Positions 51,046 through 64,000 of a stretch of DNA of 64,000 bases are shown in pieces (within the stretch, counting starts at the first letter, position 1; every line of letters starts with the position of its first letter). Under the pieces are notes generated by a model. That model ran no database searches. It was given only the letters and a program-made list of their open reading frames with translations, and had not been told where the DNA came from. This stretch comes from Escherichia coli. Lineage in GTDB: Bacteria; Pseudomonadota; Gammaproteobacteria; Enterobacterales; Enterobacteriaceae. The DNA is taken from NCBI RefSeq assembly GCF_041248615.1, contig NZ_CP158426.1, one strand, 5' to 3'. A program made the translations under genes and the position numbers.

Positions 51046-53270
51046 TATCGTTCTGCCGTGAAAAGTGTTTGAATATCATCGCGTAACAGCTGAGCGTCGG
51101 TGTAAATCCAGCTGTGAGTCATCACAGCCTGCTGCAATTGCTGCTGCATCAGCCTGACCACCGATTCATTTTGTTGACGCAGAGTCAGGCTTTCGCGTAA
51201 ACGCGTCTGTAATTCCGTCAAACATGAAGCGAACTCAGCGAAAAAAGTATTCATGCCTGCCGTAACAGATTCATCGACCTGCTCTGCCAGAACTTTAGCC
51301 ATTTGTTGGCAATAAAGATCGACTTCTGCGCTTAATGCTCGTTGCAACACACTGTAATCAACCGTCTCTGTCGGGGATTTATCATTTCCCCGTCCCCAGT
51401 CGGGCTGATTCAACCAGCGCGAAAAAGTCTCACGCACAACGCCTAAACGCGTGCTCTGCTCGTCCGTTGCTTCCTGGCGCGAAATGACTTCACTGAACAG
51501 CTGGCGAGTGTTGAAGTGGGGAACTGCGCCGTGAAAAACAGGAAAATGAAACCCAGGACGAAACCCTGACTCGCTCAATTCCATTTTGATTTGTTGCTCA
51601 ATGGGGCGAATAACATCGGTTAACACCCGGCAAAGGGTGGATTCCAGCTCGGCAAAACGCAGCGTAAAGTCGCGACTGATGGTGTTCTGCGCCGTCTGTA
51701 ACAGTGTCTCACAGCGGGTACGAATCTCGCTTAACGGCTCCGAATCATCCTGAAACAAGGCGGCTAACTGCGCATTCACCGCATCTTGCTGTTGACGCAG
51801 AAAGTAGTTGGCGGAGGTCAGGGCCAGCTCGATTTCATGTTTAATTTCGCCGCTCACCTGCGCCTGATTGAGTTGCAATAGCTGCAAACTTTCTTCGATC
51901 TGATGGATATTTTGCCGCAATTGTTCACAAGCGACGTTTAACCCGTGCGCACGAAAATCCAGGTATTCCCGAGCCTGCTGCGCGTAATTCAACAGTTTAT
52001 GCGCGGCAGATCGCAGAGCATACAACGAGGCGTTAGCGTAAGCGGCATGAAGCAACGCCTGAATTGGCTTGGCGAACAGCGAATCTTCCCACAACTGATC
52101 GGCAGCATGACGAATATGTTCGAGGTCCGCCAGATCGGCATGACGCCAGCGCCTGCCGAGCGCGGCATGGGCAAAATCTTCCACCCAGCGTTGTTGCTCT
52201 GGCGGTGGTAACTTACCGTTGTTGGCTAACTCATGGCGCGCCCGATTCGCCAGGTAGCCCCACATCGACGACACCGGAAATATCTGCTGTGGCGTAATAC
52301 AGCCTTTCATCAGCGTCCCGGAAATCAGTGCCCGCACCTGGTCGGCGTCGTCACTGTTACGATCCTGTTGATCGAACTTATTGACCAGCACATACAGCGG
52401 CACCGATTGCCCCACCGCCAAAATCGCCTCACGGACCTCTTCATCGGAGATCGATTTCAGTTGCGTATAATCCAGCACCGCCAGTACCGCCGAGGCGCGA
52501 GCCAGCTGCTGGTTAAGCATTTTTTGCAGATGCGGTTGCCCGGCTTCATTTGGCCCGGGGGTATCCAGTAACGTCAACTGACCGGGATAACTCTCCAGCC
52601 CCGCCAGATGGACAAACTCCACTTCAATCACGGGAATATGCTCAATGGCGGCGTAAGCAGAAAAAGGAAAATCGACGTCCAGCGCCTTCGCCAGTCGCAC
52701 CAAATCATTCAAACTTTTCAGACAATGAAAAATAGGCTGGGCACCCAGATAATATTTTTCGAAAGCGACGCCATTTTCGATCCGCTGCATAAGCGCACGC
52801 ATATCTTTATCTATTTCCAGCACATCGGTCAGATGCTTAATATCGCAATCACGCAGGCGCTGTTGTAATTTTTGAATTAAACAATCGATTGGCGCGACAT
52901 GTGAAAAATGCAGTACCGGTTCCTTTTGCCCGGGCGTATGGCGAATAAGCGTCGGCAGCGCAGTCATTGGGCGATTACGATTAGGCAAAACCTCCGTACC
53001 AACAATGGCATTAATGGTGGTTGATTTCCCTGCTTTCATGGTACCGACAATCGCCAGAACCATTTCCAGTCGGGAAATTTTACGCAACTCATTATTCAGC
53101 ATCGCGTGACGTTCGGCGATATTAGGCTGACTCCAGGGTAAAGCCAGTTGTGGCGCATCGTCTCCGGGGACAGAGAGAGGCATTTTTTCCAGTAACTGCA
53201 ACTGTTGGCGAGAAAGCTGTAACAGGCGTTCAGCCTCCTGACTTAACTCATACAGGGTCTGTGTGTACAT
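51042..53270 (-). CDS. crfC: Dynamin-like GTPase CrfC (YjdA)
   Basis: 742-aa ORF with P-loop GTMKAGKSTTINAIVG and dynamin-type G-domain motifs. Confidence 0.9.
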   Translation of the reverse strand: MYTQTLYELSQEAERLLQLSRQQLQLLEKMPLSVPGDDAPQLALPWSQPNIAERHAMLNNELRKISRLEMVLAIVGTMKAGKSTTINAIVGTEVLPNRNRPMTALPTLIRHTPGQKEPVLHFSHVAPIDCLIQKLQQRLRDCDIKHLTDVLEIDKDMRALMQRIENGVAFEKYYLGAQPIFHCLKSLNDLVRLAKALDVDFPFSAYAAIEHIPVIEVEFVHLAGLESYPGQLTLLDTPGPNEAGQPHLQKMLNQQLARASAVLAVLDYTQLKSISDEEVREAILAVGQSVPLYVLVNKFDQQDRNSDDADQVRALISGTLMKGCITPQQIFPVSSMWGYLANRARHELANNGKLPPPEQQRWVEDFAHAALGRRWRHADLADLEHIRHAADQLWEDSLFAKPIQALLHAAYANASLYALRSAAHKLLNYAQQAREYLDFRAHGLNVACEQLRQNIHQIEESLQLLQLNQAQVSGEIKHEIELALTSANYFLRQQQDAVNAQLAALFQDDSEPLSEIRTRCETLLQTAQNTISRDFTLRFAELESTLCRVLTDVIRPIEQQIKMELSESGFRPGFHFPVFHGAVPHFNTRQLFSEVISRQEATDEQSTRLGVVRETFSRWLNQPDWGRGNDKSPTETVDYSVLQRALSAEVDLYCQQMAKVLAEQVDESVTAGMNTFFAEFASCLTELQTRLRESLTLRQQNESVVRLMQQQLQQAVMTHSWIYTDAQLLRDDIQTLFTAERY

Positions 53271-53671
53271 AGAAAATTCTTCCTTAAAGCAAATTTTGTT
53301 ACTTTTATTTAGCCAGATTGTTTTTAAGTTCTGTTTTCGGCTTTTATAATTACTGCAAGAAATAATTTTATATTTAGAGTGTTGTTTTTTATTAGAATAA
53401 ATAATGTCTTCCGATACGTTTAAAACGTCAGAAAGATAAAAATATCATTTGAATTAAAAAAAGAACAAGTAGAGCATTAACCTTATCTTAAATAATAAAT
53501 GGAGGCAAAAAGATTATTTTCTTTTTGCGTTTCCTTTCAAATGAAAACGATCGTCGTCTAAAATCAGCAGTACCCCCGACAAACTCAGGGATTTTGTGTA
53601 TAATTGCGGCCTTTTTCGGCAATCTGCCGTTTTTTGGCGCTTTTGCCCTGCTGACTTTTGAGGAAATCCAC

Positions 53672-54007
53672 ATGTCATTACCACACTGCCCAAAATGCAA
53701 CTCCGAATACACCTACGAAGATAACGGCATGTACATCTGCCCGGAATGTGCCTACGAATGGAACGACGCAGAACCTGCACAGGAAAGCGACGAGCTGATC
53801 GTTAAAGATGCTAACGGCAATCTGCTGGCTGACGGCGACAGCGTTACCATCATTAAAGATCTGAAGGTGAAAGGTAGCTCTTCGATGCTGAAAATTGGCA
53901 CCAAAGTGAAAAACATCCGCCTGGTTGAAGGCGACCATAACATCGATTGCAAAATCGACGGTTTTGGTCCGATGAAACTGAAATCTGAGTTTGTGAAAAA
54001 GAACTGA
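53672..54007 (+). CDS. yjdM: Zinc-ribbon protein YjdM (historically PhnA)
   Basis: ORF 53525..54007; 111-aa protein from ATG 53672 ([30 protein letters not shown]…). Confidence 0.88.
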
Positions 54008-54020
54008 TTGTATTGTGATC

Positions 54021-54510
<490 letters not shown>

Positions 54511-54566
54511 ATCTGTATAAATTTCGAACTACACTTAACTGGCTTCTCTTAACTGAGGTCACCATC

Positions 54567-55010
54567 ATGCCGTTAAGTCCCTACCTCTCTTTTGCCGGTA
54601 ACTGTGCCGACGCAATTGCTTATTATCAACGTACGTTGGGCGCTGAACTGATCTATAAAATCAGCTTCGGCGAAATGCCAAAATCAGCGCAGGACAGCGC
54701 CGAGAACTGCCCTTCCGGAATGCAATTTCCCGATACCGCCATCGCCCACGCCAATGTGCGCATTGCCGGAAGCGATATCATGATGAGCGATGCTATACCG
54801 TCAGGAAAAGCCAGCTACTCCGGCTTTACGTTAGTGCTCGATTCGCAACAGGTCGAAGAAGGGAAACGCTGGTTTGACAATCTTGCCGCCAACGGAAAAA
54901 TCGAAATGGCCTGGCAGGAAACTTTCTGGGCGCATGGCTTCGGCAAAGTCACCGATAAATTTGGCGTACCGTGGATGATTAATGTCGTCAAACAACAACC
55001 AACGCAATAA
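54567..55010 (+). CDS. yjdN: Glyoxalase/bleomycin-resistance-fold protein YjdN (historically PhnB)
   Basis: 147-aa ORF MPLSPYLSFAGNCADAIAYYQRTLGAELIYKISFGEMPK…. Confidence 0.85.
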   Translation: MPLSPYLSFAGNCADAIAYYQRTLGAELIYKISFGEMPKSAQDSAENCPSGMQFPDTAIAHANVRIAGSDIMMSDAIPSGKASYSGFTLVLDSQQVEEGKRWFDNLAANGKIEMAWQETFWAHGFGKVTDKFGVPWMINVVKQQPTQ

Positions 55011-55142
55011 TCCGCCGGGAGGCCCGCCCTCCCGCACTGTCATCGAATTCCCGTTAACTCTTCATCTGTTAGTCACTTTTAATTAACCAAATCGTCACAA
55101 TAATCCGCCACGATGGAGCCACTTTTTTAGGGAGGCTGCATC

Positions 55143-55931
55143 ATGCAAACGATTATCCGTGTCGAGAAGCTCGCCAAAACCTTCAATCAGCATCAGGCGC
55201 TGCACGCGGTTGATCTGAACATTCATCACGGTGAAATGGTGGCTCTGCTTGGGCCGTCGGGTTCCGGCAAATCCACCCTTTTACGTCACTTAAGCGGTTT
55301 GATTACCGGCGATAAATCTGCCGGTAGCCATATCGAGCTGCTGGGCCGCACAGTCCAGCGCGAAGGCCGCCTGGCCCGCGATATCCGCAAAAGCCGCGCC
55401 AACACCGGCTACATCTTCCAACAATTCAACCTAGTGAATCGCCTGAGCGTACTGGAGAACGTGCTGATTGGCGCGCTCGGCAGCACGCCATTCTGGCGCA
55501 CCTGTTTTAGCTACTTCACCCGCGAGCAGAAACAGCGCGCGTTACAGGCGCTGACCCGCGTTGGCATGGTGCATTTTGCCCATCAGCGCGTTTCCACCCT
55601 CTCCGGCGGACAGCAGCAGCGTGTGGCGATTGCCCGTGCGCTGATGCAGCAGGCGAAGGTGATTCTGGCCGATGAACCCATCGCCTCGCTGGACCCGGAA
55701 TCAGCGCGCATCGTGATGGACACCCTGCGCGACATCAACCAGAACGACGGCATTACCGTGGTCGTCACGCTGCATCAGGTGGATTACGCCCTGCGCTACT
55801 GCGAACGCATCGTCGCCCTGCGCCAGGGGCACGTCTTCTACGACGGCAGCAGCCAACAGTTTGATAACGAACGTTTTGACCATCTCTACCGCAGCATCAA
55901 CCGCGTCGAAGAAAACGCGAAAGCTGCCTGA
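55143..55931 (+). CDS. phnC: Phosphonate ABC transporter ATP-binding protein PhnC
   Basis: 262-aa ORF with Walker [10 protein letters not shown] and ABC signature LSGGQQQR. Confidence 0.95.
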
Positions 55932-55955
55932 CATCCCCATCATTGAGGAAAACGA

Positions 55956-56972
55956 ATGAACGCTAAGATAATTGCCTCGCTGGCCTTCACCAGCATGTTC
56001 AGCCTCAGCACCCTGTTAAGCCCGGCGTACGCCGAAGAGCAGGAAAAGGCGCTGAATTTCGGCATTATTTCAACGGAATCACAGCAAAACCTGAAACCGC
56101 AATGGACGCCGTTCTTGCAGGATATGGAGAAGAAGCTGGGCGTAAAGGTCAACGCCTTCTTTGCCCCGGACTACGCGGGCATTATCCAGGGGATGCGCTT
56201 CAATAAAGTGGATATCGCCTGGTACGGCAATCTGTCGGCGATGGAAGCGGTGGATCGCGCCAATGGCCAGGTCTTCGCCCAGACGGTCGCGGCGGATGGA
56301 TCGCCGGGTTACTGGAGCGTGTTGATCGTCAACAAAGACAGCCCGATCAACAACCTGAACGATCTGCTGGCGAAGCGGAAAGATCTCACCTTCGGCAATG
56401 GCGATCCTAACTCTACCTCCGGCTTCCTCGTCCCTGGTTACTACGTCTTCGCCAAAAACAATATCTCCGCCAGCGACTTCAAGCGCACCGTCAACGCCGG
56501 GCATGAAACCAACGCGCTGGCCGTCGCCAACAAGCAGGTGGATGTCGCGACCAATAACACCGAAAACCTCGACAAGCTGAAAACCTCCGCACCGGAGAAG
56601 CTGAAAGAACTGAAGGTGATCTGGAAGTCGCCGCTGATCCCAGGCGATCCGATCGTCTGGCGCAAGAATCTTTCCGAAACCACCAAAGACAAGCTCTACG
56701 ACTTCTTTATGAATTACGGCAAAACGCCGGAAGAGAAAGCGGTGCTGGAACGCCTGGGCTGGGCCCCGTTCCGCGCCTCCAGCGACCTGCAACTGGTGCC
56801 GATTCGCCAGCTCGCGCTGTTTAAAGAGATGCAGGGCGTGAAAAGCAATAAAGGGCTGAATGAGCAGGACAAGCTGGCGAAAACCACCGCGATTCAGGCG
56901 CAGCTGGATGACCTGGACCGCCTGAACAACGCGTTAAGCGCGATGAGTTCGGTAAGTAAAGCGGTGCAGTAA
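55956..56972 (+). CDS. phnD: Phosphonate ABC transporter periplasmic binding protein PhnD
   Basis: 338-aa ORF with signal peptide MNAKIIASLAFTSMFSLSTLLSPAYA. Confidence 0.95.
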   Translation: MNAKIIASLAFTSMFSLSTLLSPAYAEEQEKALNFGIISTESQQNLKPQWTPFLQDMEKKLGVKVNAFFAPDYAGIIQGMRFNKVDIAWYGNLSAMEAVDRANGQVFAQTVAADGSPGYWSVLIVNKDSPINNLNDLLAKRKDLTFGNGDPNSTSGFLVPGYYVFAKNNISASDFKRTVNAGHETNALAVANKQVDVATNNTENLDKLKTSAPEKLKELKVIWKSPLIPGDPIVWRKNLSETTKDKLYDFFMNYGKTPEEKAVLERLGWAPFRASSDLQLVPIRQLALFKEMQGVKSNKGLNEQDKLAKTTAIQAQLDDLDRLNNALSAMSSVSKAVQ

Positions 56973-56985
56973 TGTGCTCGATCGA

Positions 56986-57076
56986 TCCCCTCTCCCTTGA
57001 GGGAGAGGGTTAGGGTGAGGGGGAAATGCGCACGCTGATGCCCTCACCCCGGCCCTCTCCCACAGGGAGAGGGAGA
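56986..57076. repeat. GC-rich inverted repeat element (boxC-like) between phnD and phnE
   Basis: cccctctcccttgagggagagggttagggtgaggg … gccctcaccccggccctctcccacagggagaggg: two inverted copies of a ccctctccc/gggagaggg/gggtgaggg motif. Confidence 0.6.
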
Positions 57077-57097
57077 AAACATTAAACGGAGCAATAT

Positions 57098-57877
57098 ATG
57101 CAAACCATCACCATCGCCCCACCCAAGCGCAGCTGGTTCTCGCTTCTGAGCTGGGCCGTTGTTCTCGCCGTGCTGGTCGTCTCGTGGCAGGGCGCGGAAA
57201 TGGCCCCGCTCACGCTGATCAAAGACGGCGGCAACATGGCAACCTTCGCTGCCGACTTCTTCCCGCCCGATTTCAGCCAGTGGCAGGATTACCTCACCGA
57301 AATGGCCGTCACGCTGCAAATCGCCGTCTGGGGCACCGCGCTGGCGGTGGTTCTCTCCATCCCCTTCGGCCTGATGAGCGCCGAAAACCTGGTGCCGTGG
57401 TGGGTGTACCAGCCCGTTCGCCGCCTGATGGACGCCTGCCGCGCCATTAACGAAATGGTCTTCGCCATGCTGTTCGTGGTCGCCGTCGGTCTCGGTCCGT
57501 TCGCTGGCGTACTGGCGCTGTTTATCCACACCACCGGCGTGCTCTCCAAACTGCTTTCCGAAGCGGTAGAAGCAATTGAACCCGGCCCGGTGGAAGGTAT
57601 TCGCGCCACCGGTGCCAACAAGCTCGAAGAGATCCTCTACGGCGTGCTGCCGCAGGTGATGCCGCTGCTGATCTCCTACTCACTCTATCGCTTCGAATCC
57701 AACGTCCGTTCGGCCACCGTTGTTGGCATGGTCGGCGCGGGCGGGATCGGCGTCACCCTGTGGGAAGCGATTCGCGGTTTCCAGTTCCAGCAAACCTGCG
57801 CCCTGATGGTGCTGATTATCGTCACGGTCAGCCTGCTGGATTTCCTCTCTCAACGGTTGCGTAAGCACTTTATCTGA
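57098..57877 (+). CDS. phnE: Phosphonate ABC transporter permease PhnE (uninterrupted reading frame)
   Basis: 259-aa ORF with multiple TM segments and no internal stop or frameshift. Confidence 0.9.
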
Positions 57878-57897
57878 TAAGCGAGGCATTGATATCT

Positions 57898-58623
57898 ATG
57901 CACTTGTCTACACATCCGACCAGCTACCCAACACGCTATCAGGAGATAGCCGCAAAACTTGAGCAGGAGCTTCGTCAACACTACCGCTGCGGCGACTATC
58001 TTCCCGCCGAGCAGCAACTGGCGGCGCGCTTTGAGGTGAACCGCCACACCCTGCGCCGCGCCATCGACCAACTGGTGGAAAAAGGCTGGGTACAGCGCCG
58101 TCAGGGCGTCGGCGTGCTGGTGCTGATGCGCCCGTTCGATTACCCGCTCAACGCCCAGGCGCGTTTTAGCCAGAACCTGCTGGATCAGGGCAGCCATCCC
58201 ACCAGCGAAAAACTGCTGTCTGTGCTGCGCCCGGCCTCCGGTCACGTCGCTGACGCGCTGGGGATAACCGAGGGCGAGAACGTTATCCACCTGCGCACCC
58301 TGCGCCGGGTCAACGGCGTCGCGCTCTGTTTAATCGACCACTACTTTGCGGACCTCACCCTCTGGCCGACGCTGCAACGCTTCGACAGCGGCTCGCTGCA
58401 CGATTTTCTGCGCGAGCAAACGGGGATTGCGCTGCGCCGCAGCCAGACGCGGATCAGCGCCCGCCGCGCCCAGGCCAAAGAGTGCCAGCGTCTTGAAATC
58501 CCGAATATGTCGCCGCTGCTGTGCGTGCGCACCCTTAACCACCGTGACGGTGAAAGCAGCCCGGCGGAGTACTCCGTCAGCCTGACGCGCGCCGACATGA
58601 TTGAATTCACTATGGAGCACTGA
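57898..58623 (+). CDS. phnF: GntR-family regulator PhnF
   Basis: ORF 57889..58623; 241-aa protein from ATG 57898 (MHLSTHPTSYPTRYQEIAAKLEQELRQ…). Confidence 0.93.
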   Translation: MHLSTHPTSYPTRYQEIAAKLEQELRQHYRCGDYLPAEQQLAARFEVNRHTLRRAIDQLVEKGWVQRRQGVGVLVLMRPFDYPLNAQARFSQNLLDQGSHPTSEKLLSVLRPASGHVADALGITEGENVIHLRTLRRVNGVALCLIDHYFADLTLWPTLQRFDSGSLHDFLREQTGIALRRSQTRISARRAQAKECQRLEIPNMSPLLCVRTLNHRDGESSPAEYSVSLTRADMIEFTMEH

Positions 58624-59076
58624 ATGCACGCAGATACCGCGACCCGCCAGCACTGGATGTCCATACTGGCACACAGCCAACCGGCTGAACTGGCAGCCCG
58701 CCTGAAGGCGCTGAACATCACTGCCGACTATGAAGTAATCCGCGCCGCTGAAACCGGCCTGGTGCAGATTCAGGCGCGGATGGGTGGCACCGGCGAACGC
58801 TTTTTTGCTGGCGACGCCACGCTCACCCGCGCCGCCGTACGCCTGACTGACGGCACGCTCGGCTACAGCTGGGTGCTGGGGCGCGACAAACAGCACGCCG
58901 AACGCTGCGCGCTGATTGACGCGCTGATGCAGCAATCTCGCCACTTTCAAAACTTATCAGAAACTCTTATTGCCCCGCTGGACGCTGACCGTATGGCACG
59001 CATTGCCGCACGCCAGGCCGAAGTGAACGCCAGCCGGGTCGACTTCTTTACGATGGTTCGCGGAGATAACGCATGA
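58624..59076 (+). CDS. phnG: C-P lyase core complex subunit PhnG
   Basis: 150-aa [33 protein letters not shown]…. Confidence 0.93.
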
Positions 59077-59657
59077 CCCTGGAAACCGCTTTTATGCTTC
59101 CCGTGCAGGATGCCCAGCACAGTTTTCGTCGCCTGTTAAAGGCCATGAGCGAGCCGGGCGTGATAGTCGCCCTGCATCAGCTCAAACGCGGCTGGCAGCC
59201 GCTGAATATCGCCACCACCAGCGTGCTGCTGACGCTGGCCGATAACGACACGCCGGTGTGGCTTTCTGCGCCATTAAGTAACGATATCGTCAGCCAGAGC
59301 CTGCGTTTTCATACCAACGCGCCGCTGGTCAATCAGCCGGAACTGGCGACCTTCGCGGTAACGGATGAGGCGATTTCCAGCGAACAGCTCAACGCTCTTT
59401 CCAGCGGCACCGCTGTTGCGCCGGAAGCGGGCGCGACGCTGATTTTACAGGTCGTCAGCCTGAGCGGCGGGCGCATGCTGCGCCTTACTGGCGCGGGTAT
59501 TGCCGAAGAACGAATGATCGCCCCGCAGCTGCCGGAGTGCATTCTGCACGAACTTACCGAGCGCCCGCACCCGTTCCCGCTCGGCATCGACCTGATCCTG
59601 ACCTGCGGCGAGCGGCTGCTGGCTATCCCGCGAACCACTCATGTGGAGGTGTGCTGA
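59073..59657 (+). CDS. phnH: C-P lyase core complex subunit PhnH
   Basis: 194-aa [33 protein letters not shown]…; 4-bp overlap with phnG. Confidence 0.93.
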
Positions 59658-60721
59658 TGTACGTTGCCGTGAAAGGGGGCGAGAAGGCGATCGACGCCGC
59701 CCACGCCCTGCAAGAGAGCCGACGCCGGGGCAATACCGATTTGCCTGAACTGAGCGTCGCCCAGATTGAACAGCAGCTTAACCTCGCGGTAGATCGCGTG
59801 ATGACCGAAGGCGGCATTGCCGACCGCGAACTGGCGGCGCTGGCGCTGAAACAGGCCAGCGGCGATAACGTCGAAGCAATTTTCCTGCTGCGCGCCTACC
59901 GTACCACGCTGGCGAAGCTTGCGGTAAGCGAGCCGCTCGACACCACCGGGATGCGTCTCGAACGGCGTATTTCAGCGGTGTATAAAGATATTCCCGGCGG
60001 CCAGCTGCTTGGCCCAACCTACGACTACACCCACCGCCTGCTCGATTTCACCCTGCTGGCAAACGGCGAAGCGCCGACGCTGACCACAGCCGACAGCGAA
60101 CAACAGCCGTCGCCGCACGTTTTCAGCCTGCTGGCGCGTCAGGGGCTGGCGAAGTTTGAAGAAGATAGCGGCGCACAGCCGGACGACATCACCCGCACGC
60201 CGCCGGTTTACCCCTGCTCACGCTCCTCCCGCCTGCAACAATTAATGCGCGGCGACGAAGGCTATTTGCTGGCGCTGGCCTACTCCACCCAGCGTGGTTA
60301 CGGACGCAATCATCCGTTCGCAGGCGAAATCCGCAGCGGCTATATCGACGTGTCGATTGTGCCGGAAGAGCTGGGATTTGCGGTGAACGTCGGCGAACTG
60401 CTGATGACCGAATGTGAAATGGTCAACGGTTTTATCGACCCGCCGGATGAGCCGCCGCACTTCACGCGCGGCTACGGGCTGGTGTTCGGCATGAGCGAGC
60501 GCAAAGCGATGGCAATGGCGCTGGTTGACCGCGCTCTGCAAGCCCCGGAGTACGGCGAGCACGCGACAGGCCCGGCGCAGGATGAAGAGTTCGTGCTGGC
60601 GCATGCCGACAACGTCGAAGCCGCAGGCTTTGTCTCGCACCTTAAACTCCCGCACTACGTCGATTTCCAGGCCGAACTGGAGCTACTCAAACGTCTGCAA
60701 CAGGAGCAGAACCATGGCTAA
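59657..60721 (+). CDS. phnI: C-P lyase subunit PhnI (ribosyl-triphosphate-forming nucleosidase)
   Basis: ORF 59537..60721; 354-aa protein from ATG 59657 ([25 protein letters not shown]…), whose A is the last base of the phnH TGA stop. Confidence 0.93.
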   Translation: MYVAVKGGEKAIDAAHALQESRRRGNTDLPELSVAQIEQQLNLAVDRVMTEGGIADRELAALALKQASGDNVEAIFLLRAYRTTLAKLAVSEPLDTTGMRLERRISAVYKDIPGGQLLGPTYDYTHRLLDFTLLANGEAPTLTTADSEQQPSPHVFSLLARQGLAKFEEDSGAQPDDITRTPPVYPCSRSSRLQQLMRGDEGYLLALAYSTQRGYGRNHPFAGEIRSGYIDVSIVPEELGFAVNVGELLMTECEMVNGFIDPPDEPPHFTRGYGLVFGMSERKAMAMALVDRALQAPEYGEHATGPAQDEEFVLAHADNVEAAGFVSHLKLPHYVDFQAELELLKRLQQEQNHG

Positions 60722-61559
60722 TCTGAGCGGCTACAACTTTGCTTACCTCGACGAGCAGACCAAACGCATGATCCGCCGCGCCATCTTAAAAGCGGTAGCG
60801 ATCCCCGGTTATCAGGTACCTTTTGGCGGGCGCGAGATGCCGATGCCGTACGGCTGGGGAACCGGCGGCATACAGCTCACCGCCAGCGTGATTGGCGAAA
60901 GCGACGTGCTGAAGGTGATTGACCAGGGCGCGGACGACACCACCAACGCCGTGTCGATTCGCAACTTCTTTAAGCGCGTGACCGGGGTAAACACTACCGA
61001 ACGCACGGACGATGCGACGCTTATCCAGACGCGCCATCGCATCCCCGAAACGCCGCTCACCGAAGATCAGATCATTATTTTCCAGGTGCCGATCCCGGAA
61101 CCGCTGCGCTTTATCGAGCCGCGCGAAACGGAGACCCGCACTATGCACGCGCTGGAGGAGTACGGCGTGATGCAGGTGAAGCTGTATGAAGATATCGCCC
61201 GCTTCGGTCATATCGCCACCACTTATGCCTATCCGGTGAAGGTGAACGGGCGCTACGTCATGGACCCATCGCCGATCCCGAAATTCGATAATCCGAAGAT
61301 GAACATGATGCCCGCCCTGCAGCTGTTCGGCGCAGGGCGCGAGAAGCGCATCTATGCGGTGCCGCCGTTTACCCGCGTGGAAAGCCTCGATTTCGACGAT
61401 CACCCGTTCACCGTTCAGCAGTGGAATGAGCCATGCGCCATCTGCGGATCGACCCACAGCTATCTCGACGAAGTGGTACTGGATGACGCCGGAAACCGCA
61501 TGTTTGTCTGCTCCGATACCGATTATTGCCGCCAACAGAGCGAGGCAAAAAACCAATGA
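60714..61559 (+). CDS. phnJ: C-P lyase PhnJ (radical SAM, C-P bond cleavage)
   Basis: ORF 60525..61559; 281-aa protein from ATG 60714 (MANLSGYNFAYLDEQTKRMIRRAILKAVAIPGYQVPF…); C-terminal Cys cluster CAICGSTHSY…CSDTDYC. Confidence 0.93.
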   Translation: MANLSGYNFAYLDEQTKRMIRRAILKAVAIPGYQVPFGGREMPMPYGWGTGGIQLTASVIGESDVLKVIDQGADDTTNAVSIRNFFKRVTGVNTTERTDDATLIQTRHRIPETPLTEDQIIIFQVPIPEPLRFIEPRETETRTMHALEEYGVMQVKLYEDIARFGHIATTYAYPVKVNGRYVMDPSPIPKFDNPKMNMMPALQLFGAGREKRIYAVPPFTRVESLDFDDHPFTVQQWNEPCAICGSTHSYLDEVVLDDAGNRMFVCSDTDYCRQQSEAKNQ

Positions 61560-62314
61560 ATCAACCGTTACTTTCGGTCAATAACCTGACCCACCTTTAC
61601 GCGCCGGGCAAAGGCTTTAGCGATGTCTCTTTTGATTTATGGCCGGGGGAAGTGCTGGGCATTGTCGGGGAGTCCGGCTCCGGGAAGACCACGCTGCTGA
61701 AATCAATCTCCGCGCGCCTGACGCCGCAGCAGGGGGAGATTCGCTATGAAAACCGCTCCCTCTATGGCATGAGCGAAGCCGACCGCCGTCGCCTGCTGCG
61801 CACCGAATGGGGCGTGGTGCATCAGCATCCACTCGACGGCCTGCGCCGCCAGGTATCGGCAGGCGGCAATATCGGCGAGCGGCTGATGGCGACCGGGGCG
61901 CGTCATTACGGCGATATTCGCGCCACCGCGCAGAAGTGGCTGGAAGAGGTGGAGATTCCCGCTAACCGGATCGACGACCTGCCAACCACCTTTTCCGGCG
62001 GCATGCAGCAGCGTTTGCAGATTGCCCGCAACCTGGTGACGCATCCGAAGCTGGTGTTTATGGACGAACCAACCGGCGGGCTGGATGTGTCGGTGCAGGC
62101 GCGCCTGCTCGACCTGCTGCGCGGCCTGGTGGTGGAGCTGAACCTGGCGGTGGTGATTGTCACCCACGATTTAGGCGTCGCCCGCCTGCTGGCGGACCGT
62201 TTGCTGGTGATGAAGCAGGGGCAAGTAGTGGAGAGTGGGTTAACCGACCGCGTGCTCGACGACCCTCACCATCCATATACCCAGCTGCTGGTGTCATCGG
62301 TTTTGCAGAATTGA
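61556..62314 (+). CDS. phnK: C-P lyase accessory ATP-binding protein PhnK
   Basis: ORF 61526..62314; protein from ATG 61556 ([21 protein letters not shown]…), Walker [10 protein letters not shown]. Confidence 0.93.
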
Positions 62315-62317
62315 GCC

Positions 62318-62406
62318 AGTGCCGGATACGGCGTAAACGCCTTATCCGGCCGACAAATGCGCTCCCCGTAGGTCGGATAAGACGCGTCAGCGTCGCATCC
62401 GACACC
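62318..62406. repeat. REP elements (pair) between phnK and phnL
   Basis: gccggatacggcgtaaacgccttatccggccgaca and gtaggtcggataagacgcgtcagcgtcgcatccgaca match REP cores. Confidence 0.75.
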
Positions 62407-62424
62407 CGAACCACGAGGCGAAAA

Positions 62425-63105
62425 ATGATTAACGTACAAAACGTCAGTAAAACCTTCATCCTGCACCAGCAAAACGGCGTGCGCCTGCCCGTCTTACAAC
62501 GTGCCTCGCTCACCGTCAACGCAGGCGAATGCGTGGTGCTTCACGGCCACTCCGGCAGCGGCAAATCAACTCTGCTGCGCTCGCTGTACGCCAACTATCT
62601 GCCCGATGAAGGGCAAATCCAGATCAAACATGGTGAGGAATGGGTAGACCTGGTCACTGCGCCAGCGCGCAAAGTGGTGGAGATCCGCAAAACCACCATC
62701 GGCTGGGTGAGCCAGTTTCTGCGCGTCATCCCGCGTATTTCGGCACTGGAAGTGGTGATGCAGCCTCTGCTCGATACCGGCGTACCGCGTGAAGCTTGCG
62801 CCGCTAAAGCCGCGCGTCTGCTCACCCGCCTGAACGTGCCTGAACGCCTGTGGCACCTGGCACCATCGACCTTCTCCGGCGGCGAACAGCAGCGCGTCAA
62901 CATCGCCCGTGGCTTTATCGTCGACTATCCGATTCTGCTGCTCGACGAACCTACCGCCTCGCTGGACGCTAAAAACAGCGCCGCCGTAGTGGAACTGATC
63001 CGCGAAGCCAAAGCCCGCGGCGCGGCCATCGTCGGTATCTTCCATGACGAAGCCGTACGCAATGACGTCGCCGACCGCCTGCACCCGATGGGAGCCTCTT
63101 CATGA
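62425..63105 (+). CDS. phnL: C-P lyase accessory ATP-binding protein PhnL
   Basis: ORF 62311..63105 reads through the REP; 226-aa protein from ATG 62425 ([24 protein letters not shown]…), Walker [10 protein letters not shown]. Confidence 0.92.
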
Positions 63106-64000
63106 TTATCAATAACGTCAAACTGGTGCTGGAAAATGAAGTGGTGCACGGTTCACTGGAAGTACAGGATGGCGAAATTCGCGCCTTTGCCGAAAGCCAG
63201 AGCCGCCAGCCAGAAGTGATGGACGGCGAAGGTGGCTGGCTACTACCCGGCCTGATTGAGCTGCATACCGACAACCTCGATAAATTCTTCACCCCGCGCC
63301 CGAAAGTCGACTGGCCCGCCCATTCGGCGATGAGCAGCCACGACGCGCTGATGGTGGCGAGCGGCATCACCACCGTACTGGACGCCGTGGCGATTGGTGA
63401 TGTGCGCGACGGCGGCGATCGGCTGGAGAATCTGGAGAAGATGATCAACGCCATCGAAGAGACGCAGAAACGCGGCGTCAACCGCGCCGAGCACCGCCTG
63501 CATCTGCGCTGCGAACTGCCGCATCACACCACGCTGCCGCTGTTTGAAAAACTGGTGCAACGCGAACCGGTGACGCTGGTATCGCTGATGGACCACTCGC
63601 CGGGCCAGCGCCAGTTCGCCAATCGCGAGAAGTATCGCGAATATTATCAGGGCAAATATTCCCTCACCGATGCGCAGATGCAGCAGTACGAAGAAGAGCA
63701 ATTGGCGCTCGCCGCACGCTGGTCGCAGCCAAATCGCGAAACCATCGCCGCAATGTGTCGCGCGCGGCACATTGCGCTCGCCAGCCACGATGACGCCACG
63801 CACGCCCACGTTGCCGAATCCCACCAGCTTGGTAGCGTGATCGCCGAATTTCCCACCACGTTCGAAGCGGCACAAGCCTCGCGCAAGCATGGCATGAACG
63901 TGCTGATGGGCGCGCCGAATATCGTGCGCGGCGGTTCGCACTCCGGCAACGTGGCGGCCAGTGAACTGGCGCAGCTTGGCCTGCTGGATATCCTCTCTTC
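63102..64000 (+). CDS. phnM: PhnM (amidohydrolase-family ribosyl-triphosphate diphosphohydrolase), 5' portion; continues past the window end
   Basis: ATG at 63102 overlapping phnL stop (ATGA); translation [32 protein letters not shown]… stays open to position 64000; not in ORF track because no stop lies inside the window. Confidence 0.88.

Follow-up and report, generated by a model that had tools for sequence, protein, structure and literature searches.

The phnE gene of Escherichia coli is described in a cryptic form, the phn(EcoK0) allele of K-12, characterized by three 8-bp tandem units and a frameshift, and in functional forms of the phn(EcoK+)/phn(EcoB) type, with two units and an uninterrupted frame of 259 codons from the conserved ATG. 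A stretch of 64,000 nucleotides of E. coli DNA (contig NZ_CP158426.1; here referred to as the window) raises the question of which of these forms its phnE represents, whether the surrounding phosphonate pathway can be expected to work, and what the state of phnE says about the ancestry of the strain. A sequence-only reading of the window had proposed an intact phnE, a functional pathway, and an origin outside K-12.

Reading frame, tandem repeat and protein of phnE

The phnE gene, encoding the phosphonate ABC transporter permease, occupies positions 57098..57877 on the + strand as one frame with an ATG start and zero internal stops, according to both the ORF list and the translation. It is flanked by phnD (55956-56972) on the 5' side and phnF (57898-58623) on the 3' side, which bears out the earlier description of a single 259-codon gene between these two. 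The claimed absence of the 8-bp K-12 duplication was assessed by aligning window positions 56940-57900 against the phnE region of MG1655. In MG1655, the repeat consists of three tandem 8-bp units, TTC GCTGGCGT GCTGGCGT GCTGGCGC TG, at ORF positions 406-429, whereas the window has two units, TTC GCTGGCGT ACTGGCGC TG, at 57503-57518 (+ strand), the slip-strand site. The alignment contains a single 8-nt gap in the window phnE, exactly opposite the extra GCTGGCGT unit of K-12, and the duplication is indeed missing. The deletion in the phnE+ revertant described by Stasi et al. 2019 (PMC6469041), i.e., the loss of 5'-GCTGGCGT at ORF positions 407-414, is at the same site as this gap. When read from the conserved ATG, K-12 phnE goes out of frame after about residue 141 and terminates at codon 190, so that most of the permease domain (residues 88-258) is lost. 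The window frame is thus open because the duplication is absent, and not by chance in another frame; the gene is of the two-unit, uninterrupted type and lacks the three units and frameshift of phn(EcoK0).

The start codon could be assigned as well. In the MG1655 pseudogene annotation, the start of phnE is placed 51 nt 5' of the conserved ATG, at a position that presumably falls inside the K-12 REP element. In the window, an in-frame TAA lies five codons upstream of the ATG, which makes such a 51-nt 5' extension impossible. The start is the conserved ATG at 57098, preceded by a GGAG motif at the 3' end of the spacer, six bases before the ATG, in agreement with the RefSeq annotation, and the additional 5' stretch annotated in K-12 is unlikely to be truly coding.

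At the protein level, the window PhnE and the MG1655 PhnE with one unit deleted in silico show 0 differences over 259 aa. At the DNA level, 27 of the 780 nucleotides differ from K-12 phnE (3.5%), and all 27 substitutions are synonymous, which points to purifying selection in the lineage of the window. Deletion of one unit has been found experimentally to restore transport in K-12 (PMC6469041, PMC3463581, PMC4759930); in the absence of any amino acid difference, the window encodes the exact protein proven to be active in K-12 revertants. The NCBIfam equivalog profile for PhnE, TIGR01097, matches residues 16-258 with 311.5 bits (cut-off 216.7; profile positions 8-251 of 252), and PF00528 is complete, with 91.8 bits over residues 88-258 (profile positions 2-178 of 184). 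The gene context is that of PhnE as well, with phnC (ATPase) and phnD (binding protein) adjacent and the C-P lyase genes downstream. Based on the 100% identity to the K-12 revertant PhnE (PMC6469041), the window PhnE would be expected to transport phosphonate (or Pi). With two units, the gene keeps its frame across the BPD_transp_1 transmembrane domain up to the usual stop codon. PhnE is the permease component, in the membrane, of PhnCDE, an ABC importer that takes up phosphonates and also phosphate; upon phosphate starvation, alkylphosphonates would be imported and subsequently cleaved by the C-P lyase.

Among the described alleles, the window phnE closely resembles the phn(EcoK+) revertant (Makino et al. 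1991; Iqbal et al. 2004; Stasi et al. 2019, PMC6469041), with which it shares the two units, the 780-nt ORF, the identical 259 aa, and the operon order and gene lengths. It departs from this revertant in the 27 synonymous substitutions, which include the G-to-A change at 57511 within the repeat, and in the repeat element that forms its phnD-phnE spacer. With phn(EcoK0), annotated as a pseudogene in MG1655 (b4583), it has in common the locus, the neighbours, the conserved ATG, and the Shine-Dalgarno sequence, but K-12 has a third GCTGGCGT unit, giving 788 nt from the conserved ATG, which the window does not have. The phn(EcoB) allele of E. coli B is alike by its published description, being naturally functional and without the 8-bp duplication (PMC3463581); in contrast, the window haplotype (A-type repeat plus palindromic spacer) is a minority form, found in about 7.5% of complete genomes.

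The phn operon and the phnD-phnE spacer

All genes of the operon in the window lie on the + strand, in the order phnC-D-E-F-G-H-I-J-K-L-M. The 132-nt region upstream of phnC, with the operon promoter (55011..55142, + strand), is identical to MG1655 at 145 of 146 aligned bases and contains at 55066-55098 the sequence CTGTTAGTCAC...ATCGTCAC, which we take to be the Pho box. It is followed by phnC for the ABC transporter ATPase (55143..55931; 262 aa without internal stop, 258/262 identical to K-12, also supported by the RefSeq annotation of strain NRZ14408) and phnD for the periplasmic phosphonate-binding protein (55956..56972; 338 aa, 335/338). Downstream of phnE are phnF for a GntR-type regulator (57898..58623; 241 aa, 241/241) and the genes for the C-P lyase core subunits PhnG (58624..59076; 150 aa, 147/150), PhnH (59073..59657; 194 aa, 187/194), and PhnI (59657..60721; 354 aa, 352/354). 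These are followed by phnJ for the C-P bond-cleaving subunit (60714..61559; 281 aa, 278/281), and by phnK (61556..62314; 252 aa, 250/252) and phnL (62425..63105; 226 aa, 222/226), both for ATP-binding proteins. As had been claimed for phnC through phnL, none of these genes is damaged: phnC, phnD, and phnF to phnL each begin with ATG, contain no internal stop, and are exactly as long as in K-12, with 96-100% amino acid identity to it. The last gene, phnM (63102..64000), was likewise correctly described as open to the window end, which cuts it after 299 of 378 codons (no stop, 291/299 identical to K-12).

The C-terminus of PhnM, phnN, phnO, phnP, and phoB/phoR are not part of the window, and the operon end was seen in the annotation of a matching genome. 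Over its final 25 kb, the window matches the chromosome of the clinical isolate E. coli NRZ14408 at 100.0% identity (NZ_LT599825.1; window coordinate = NZ_LT599825.1 coordinate minus 4835545). There, phnM has 378 codons and is followed by phnN, phnO, and phnP; the RefSeq annotation contains the same 780-nt phnE (WP_001193500.1) and lists phnC-phnP without pseudogene flags.

The genes had also been described as all translationally coupled, which holds for part of the operon. Six of the ten junctions abut or overlap (F-G 0, G-H -4, H-I -1, I-J -8, J-K -4, and L-M -4 nt), and for these the description stands; it does not for the other four, of which C-D and E-F are short gaps (24 and 20 nt) and D-E and K-L are long ones (125 and 110 nt), with palindromic repeats inside both long gaps. 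Accordingly, phnE is not coupled to phnD but has its own GGAG Shine-Dalgarno sequence after the 125-nt spacer. The phnK-phnL gap (62315-62424) has the same 110-nt length in K-12. On both strands, its naRNA4/REP-like matches are weak and below threshold (29-41 bits), and the gap probably contains a REP element.

The phnD-phnE spacer (56973..57097, + strand), characterized by alignment and RNA folding, is a palindromic intergenic repeat of 125 nt. In the MG1655 alignment, no alignable similarity was found between it and the K-12 spacer, and an Rfam scan of the spacer returned no family. The element is a dispersed intergenic repeat with 1-5 sites in each E. coli genome (e.g., at about 164.5 kb in K-12 DH1), and 410 records (E. 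coli genomes) match the spacer at at least 99% identity. Its RNA is predicted to form a long hairpin with a folding energy of -72 kcal/mol (z = -7.96), and a hairpin of this strength could reduce read-through into phnE. This fold, together with the unrelatedness of the spacer to that of K-12, would suit an operon in which phnE is open yet expression beyond phnD is silent or weak, with the spacer acting as a terminator or RNase barrier and the strain being effectively Phn- or low in uptake. Such a barrier is nevertheless considered very unlikely, as there is no T-run 3' of the hairpin, where the sequence goes on with GAGAAAACATTAAACGGAG. Intercistronic palindromic repeats in ABC-transporter operons (e.g., malE-malF) as a rule stabilise the message upstream of them and do not fully terminate it, and K-12 itself presumably has an intergenic repeat, a REP element, at the phnD-phnE position. 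The purifying selection seen in the exclusively synonymous phnE differences indicates that the gene has been kept in this lineage, and the presence of the same spacer in about 410 genomes implies that the haplotype is evidently tolerated.

In light of the above, the window phnE is very probably a normal 'ON' allele within a phnCDEFGHIJKLM(NOP) operon that is intact, in an E. coli strain outside K-12 for which phosphonate use is predicted. The claim that phosphonate uptake and the C-P lyase are functional agrees with this prediction, given that PhnE equals the repaired K-12 PhnE and that the operon is intact. From the identity to a characterised protein and the intact operon, expression, transport, and a growth phenotype can be expected with high confidence. 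No selection should be needed for the strain to be Phn+, with methylphosphonate and 2-aminoethylphosphonate as usable phosphorus sources, and PhnCDE can act as an additional phosphate importer.

Two- and three-unit alleles in E. coli

The distribution of the two states was surveyed with a 118-nt synthetic three-unit query against 5426 complete E. coli genomes, of which 5394 records matched. As an 8-nt gap caps the identity at 93%, identity bands cleanly separate two-unit from three-unit alleles. Two units were found in 4396 of the 5394 records (81%; below 95% identity), and three units in 998 (about 18.5%; ungapped, within the 95-99% identity band). Two units are thus the majority state, in line with the statement that most isolates have a functional phnE (PMC6469041). 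Three-unit carriers include non-laboratory isolates from dog, cucumber, and river water, and the non-K-12 O80:H26 strain EC-107 (chicken, 5.08 Mb), which has a 788-nt match. The 77-nt K-12 flanking haplotype recurs unchanged in nearly all three-unit alleles, and in the search that showed this the full-coverage matches that were sampled had either 100% identity or the 8-nt gap; the best match of another type in the 118-nt survey was one record with 96.6% identity. Other haplotypes with G at the start of the second unit (G-type; e.g., O157:H7) appear only in the two-unit form.

The OFF allele is said to have appeared unique to K-12 in a 2004 paper by Iqbal and co-workers. With three units in 998 of 5394 records, some of them clearly from non-K-12 strains, the three-unit OFF allele is no clean K-12 marker, and the ON allele marks nothing. 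This bears on the sequence-only reading, in which the open phnE was counted among the indications that the strain is not a K-12 derivative. The conclusion was right: over phnE-phnM, the DNA identity to MG1655 is 95.4% (306 mismatches in 6923 nt), and the strain is therefore not K-12. As evidence for it, however, phnE itself is poor, because about 81% of the matching records have two units, three-unit alleles also occur outside K-12, and K-12 reverts readily, its phnE+ revertants arising by slippage (PMC6469041, PMC4759930). The window phnE allele is common and already known, and the strain is an ordinary non-K-12 E. coli; the finding matters little beyond correct annotation, and the allele survey is of modest general use.

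A peculiarity of the window allele is that its second unit opens with A (57511) instead of G, a synonymous change from GTG to GTA. It leaves the exact period-8 direct repeat with 6 bases instead of 7, and the units agree at 6/8 positions, compared with 7/8 in the K-12-type two-unit allele. This A-type allele was found in 408 of the 5426 genomes, all two-unit, and with the 118-nt synthetic three-unit query 0 records reached at least 99% identity among the 5426 complete genomes. The similar numbers of the A-type allele (408) and the spacer (410) suggest that both features travel together as one haplotype. Two other queries were set aside: a 45-nt query for the three-unit A-type could miss alleles, because partial matches of 29-30 nt lie close to the E-value limit of 1e-5, and a 62-nt synthetic three-unit query was uninformative, as two overlapping pieces were joined as '100% coverage' with a record span of 54 nt.

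These observations also bear on whether the phnE of the window could have reverted recently from a three-unit OFF allele, in a lineage that switches like K-12 and was sequenced in its ON phase. The two units remaining at 57503-57518 make slippage to three mechanistically possible, and reversible phnE switching has been reported for K-12 (Iqbal et al. 2004, as cited in PMC6469041). However, a three-unit A-type allele has 0 records at that identity level against 408 two-unit ones, and the 6/8 agreement of the units compares unfavourably with the 7/8 of the K-12-type allele; a recent reversion is considered extremely unlikely, and a normal two-unit ON allele is preferred. It is also very unlikely that the A at 57511 lowers the slip-strand gain of a third unit and makes phnE a natural 'locked-ON' variant. 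Other G-type haplotypes are without three-unit forms as well, which leaves this idea with no specific support. Clonal inheritance of the OFF allele accounts for this distribution no less well than a sequence effect, given that three-unit forms are essentially limited to the K-12-type flanking haplotype.

Identity steps and flanking features of the phn locus

The DNA identity to MG1655 drops stepwise along this part of the window, namely, from 98.2% (52405-54501) to 97.3% (54019-56972, yjdN-phnD) and 95.4% (57087-64000, phnE-phnM). Despite these steps, the proteins encoded over 52405-64000 remain 96-100% identical to MG1655. The break in identity falls at the phnD-phnE spacer, which is itself replaced, and a recombination boundary may lie there.

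Beyond the window end, 3' of phnP and yjdP, the rpiB-like gene of NRZ14408 is shortened to 318 nt, compared with 450 nt in K-12, and yjcS comes immediately after it. The alsR and alsB genes, located 3' of rpiB in MG1655, are absent from the NRZ14408 annotation table, and on the basis of the annotation tables the allose operon thus seems to have been deleted.

Lastly, a tandem array with a period of 100 and 4.8 copies lies between yjdM and yjdN (54022-54501), which we take to be the REP325 element. Each of its copies matches the Rfam family naRNA4 (RF02564) with 90-111 bits (gathering score 59.5). The yjdM-yjdN gap measures 559 nt in the window, 657 nt in MG1655, and 159 nt in VCSW5, i.e., the length of the array varies between strains.
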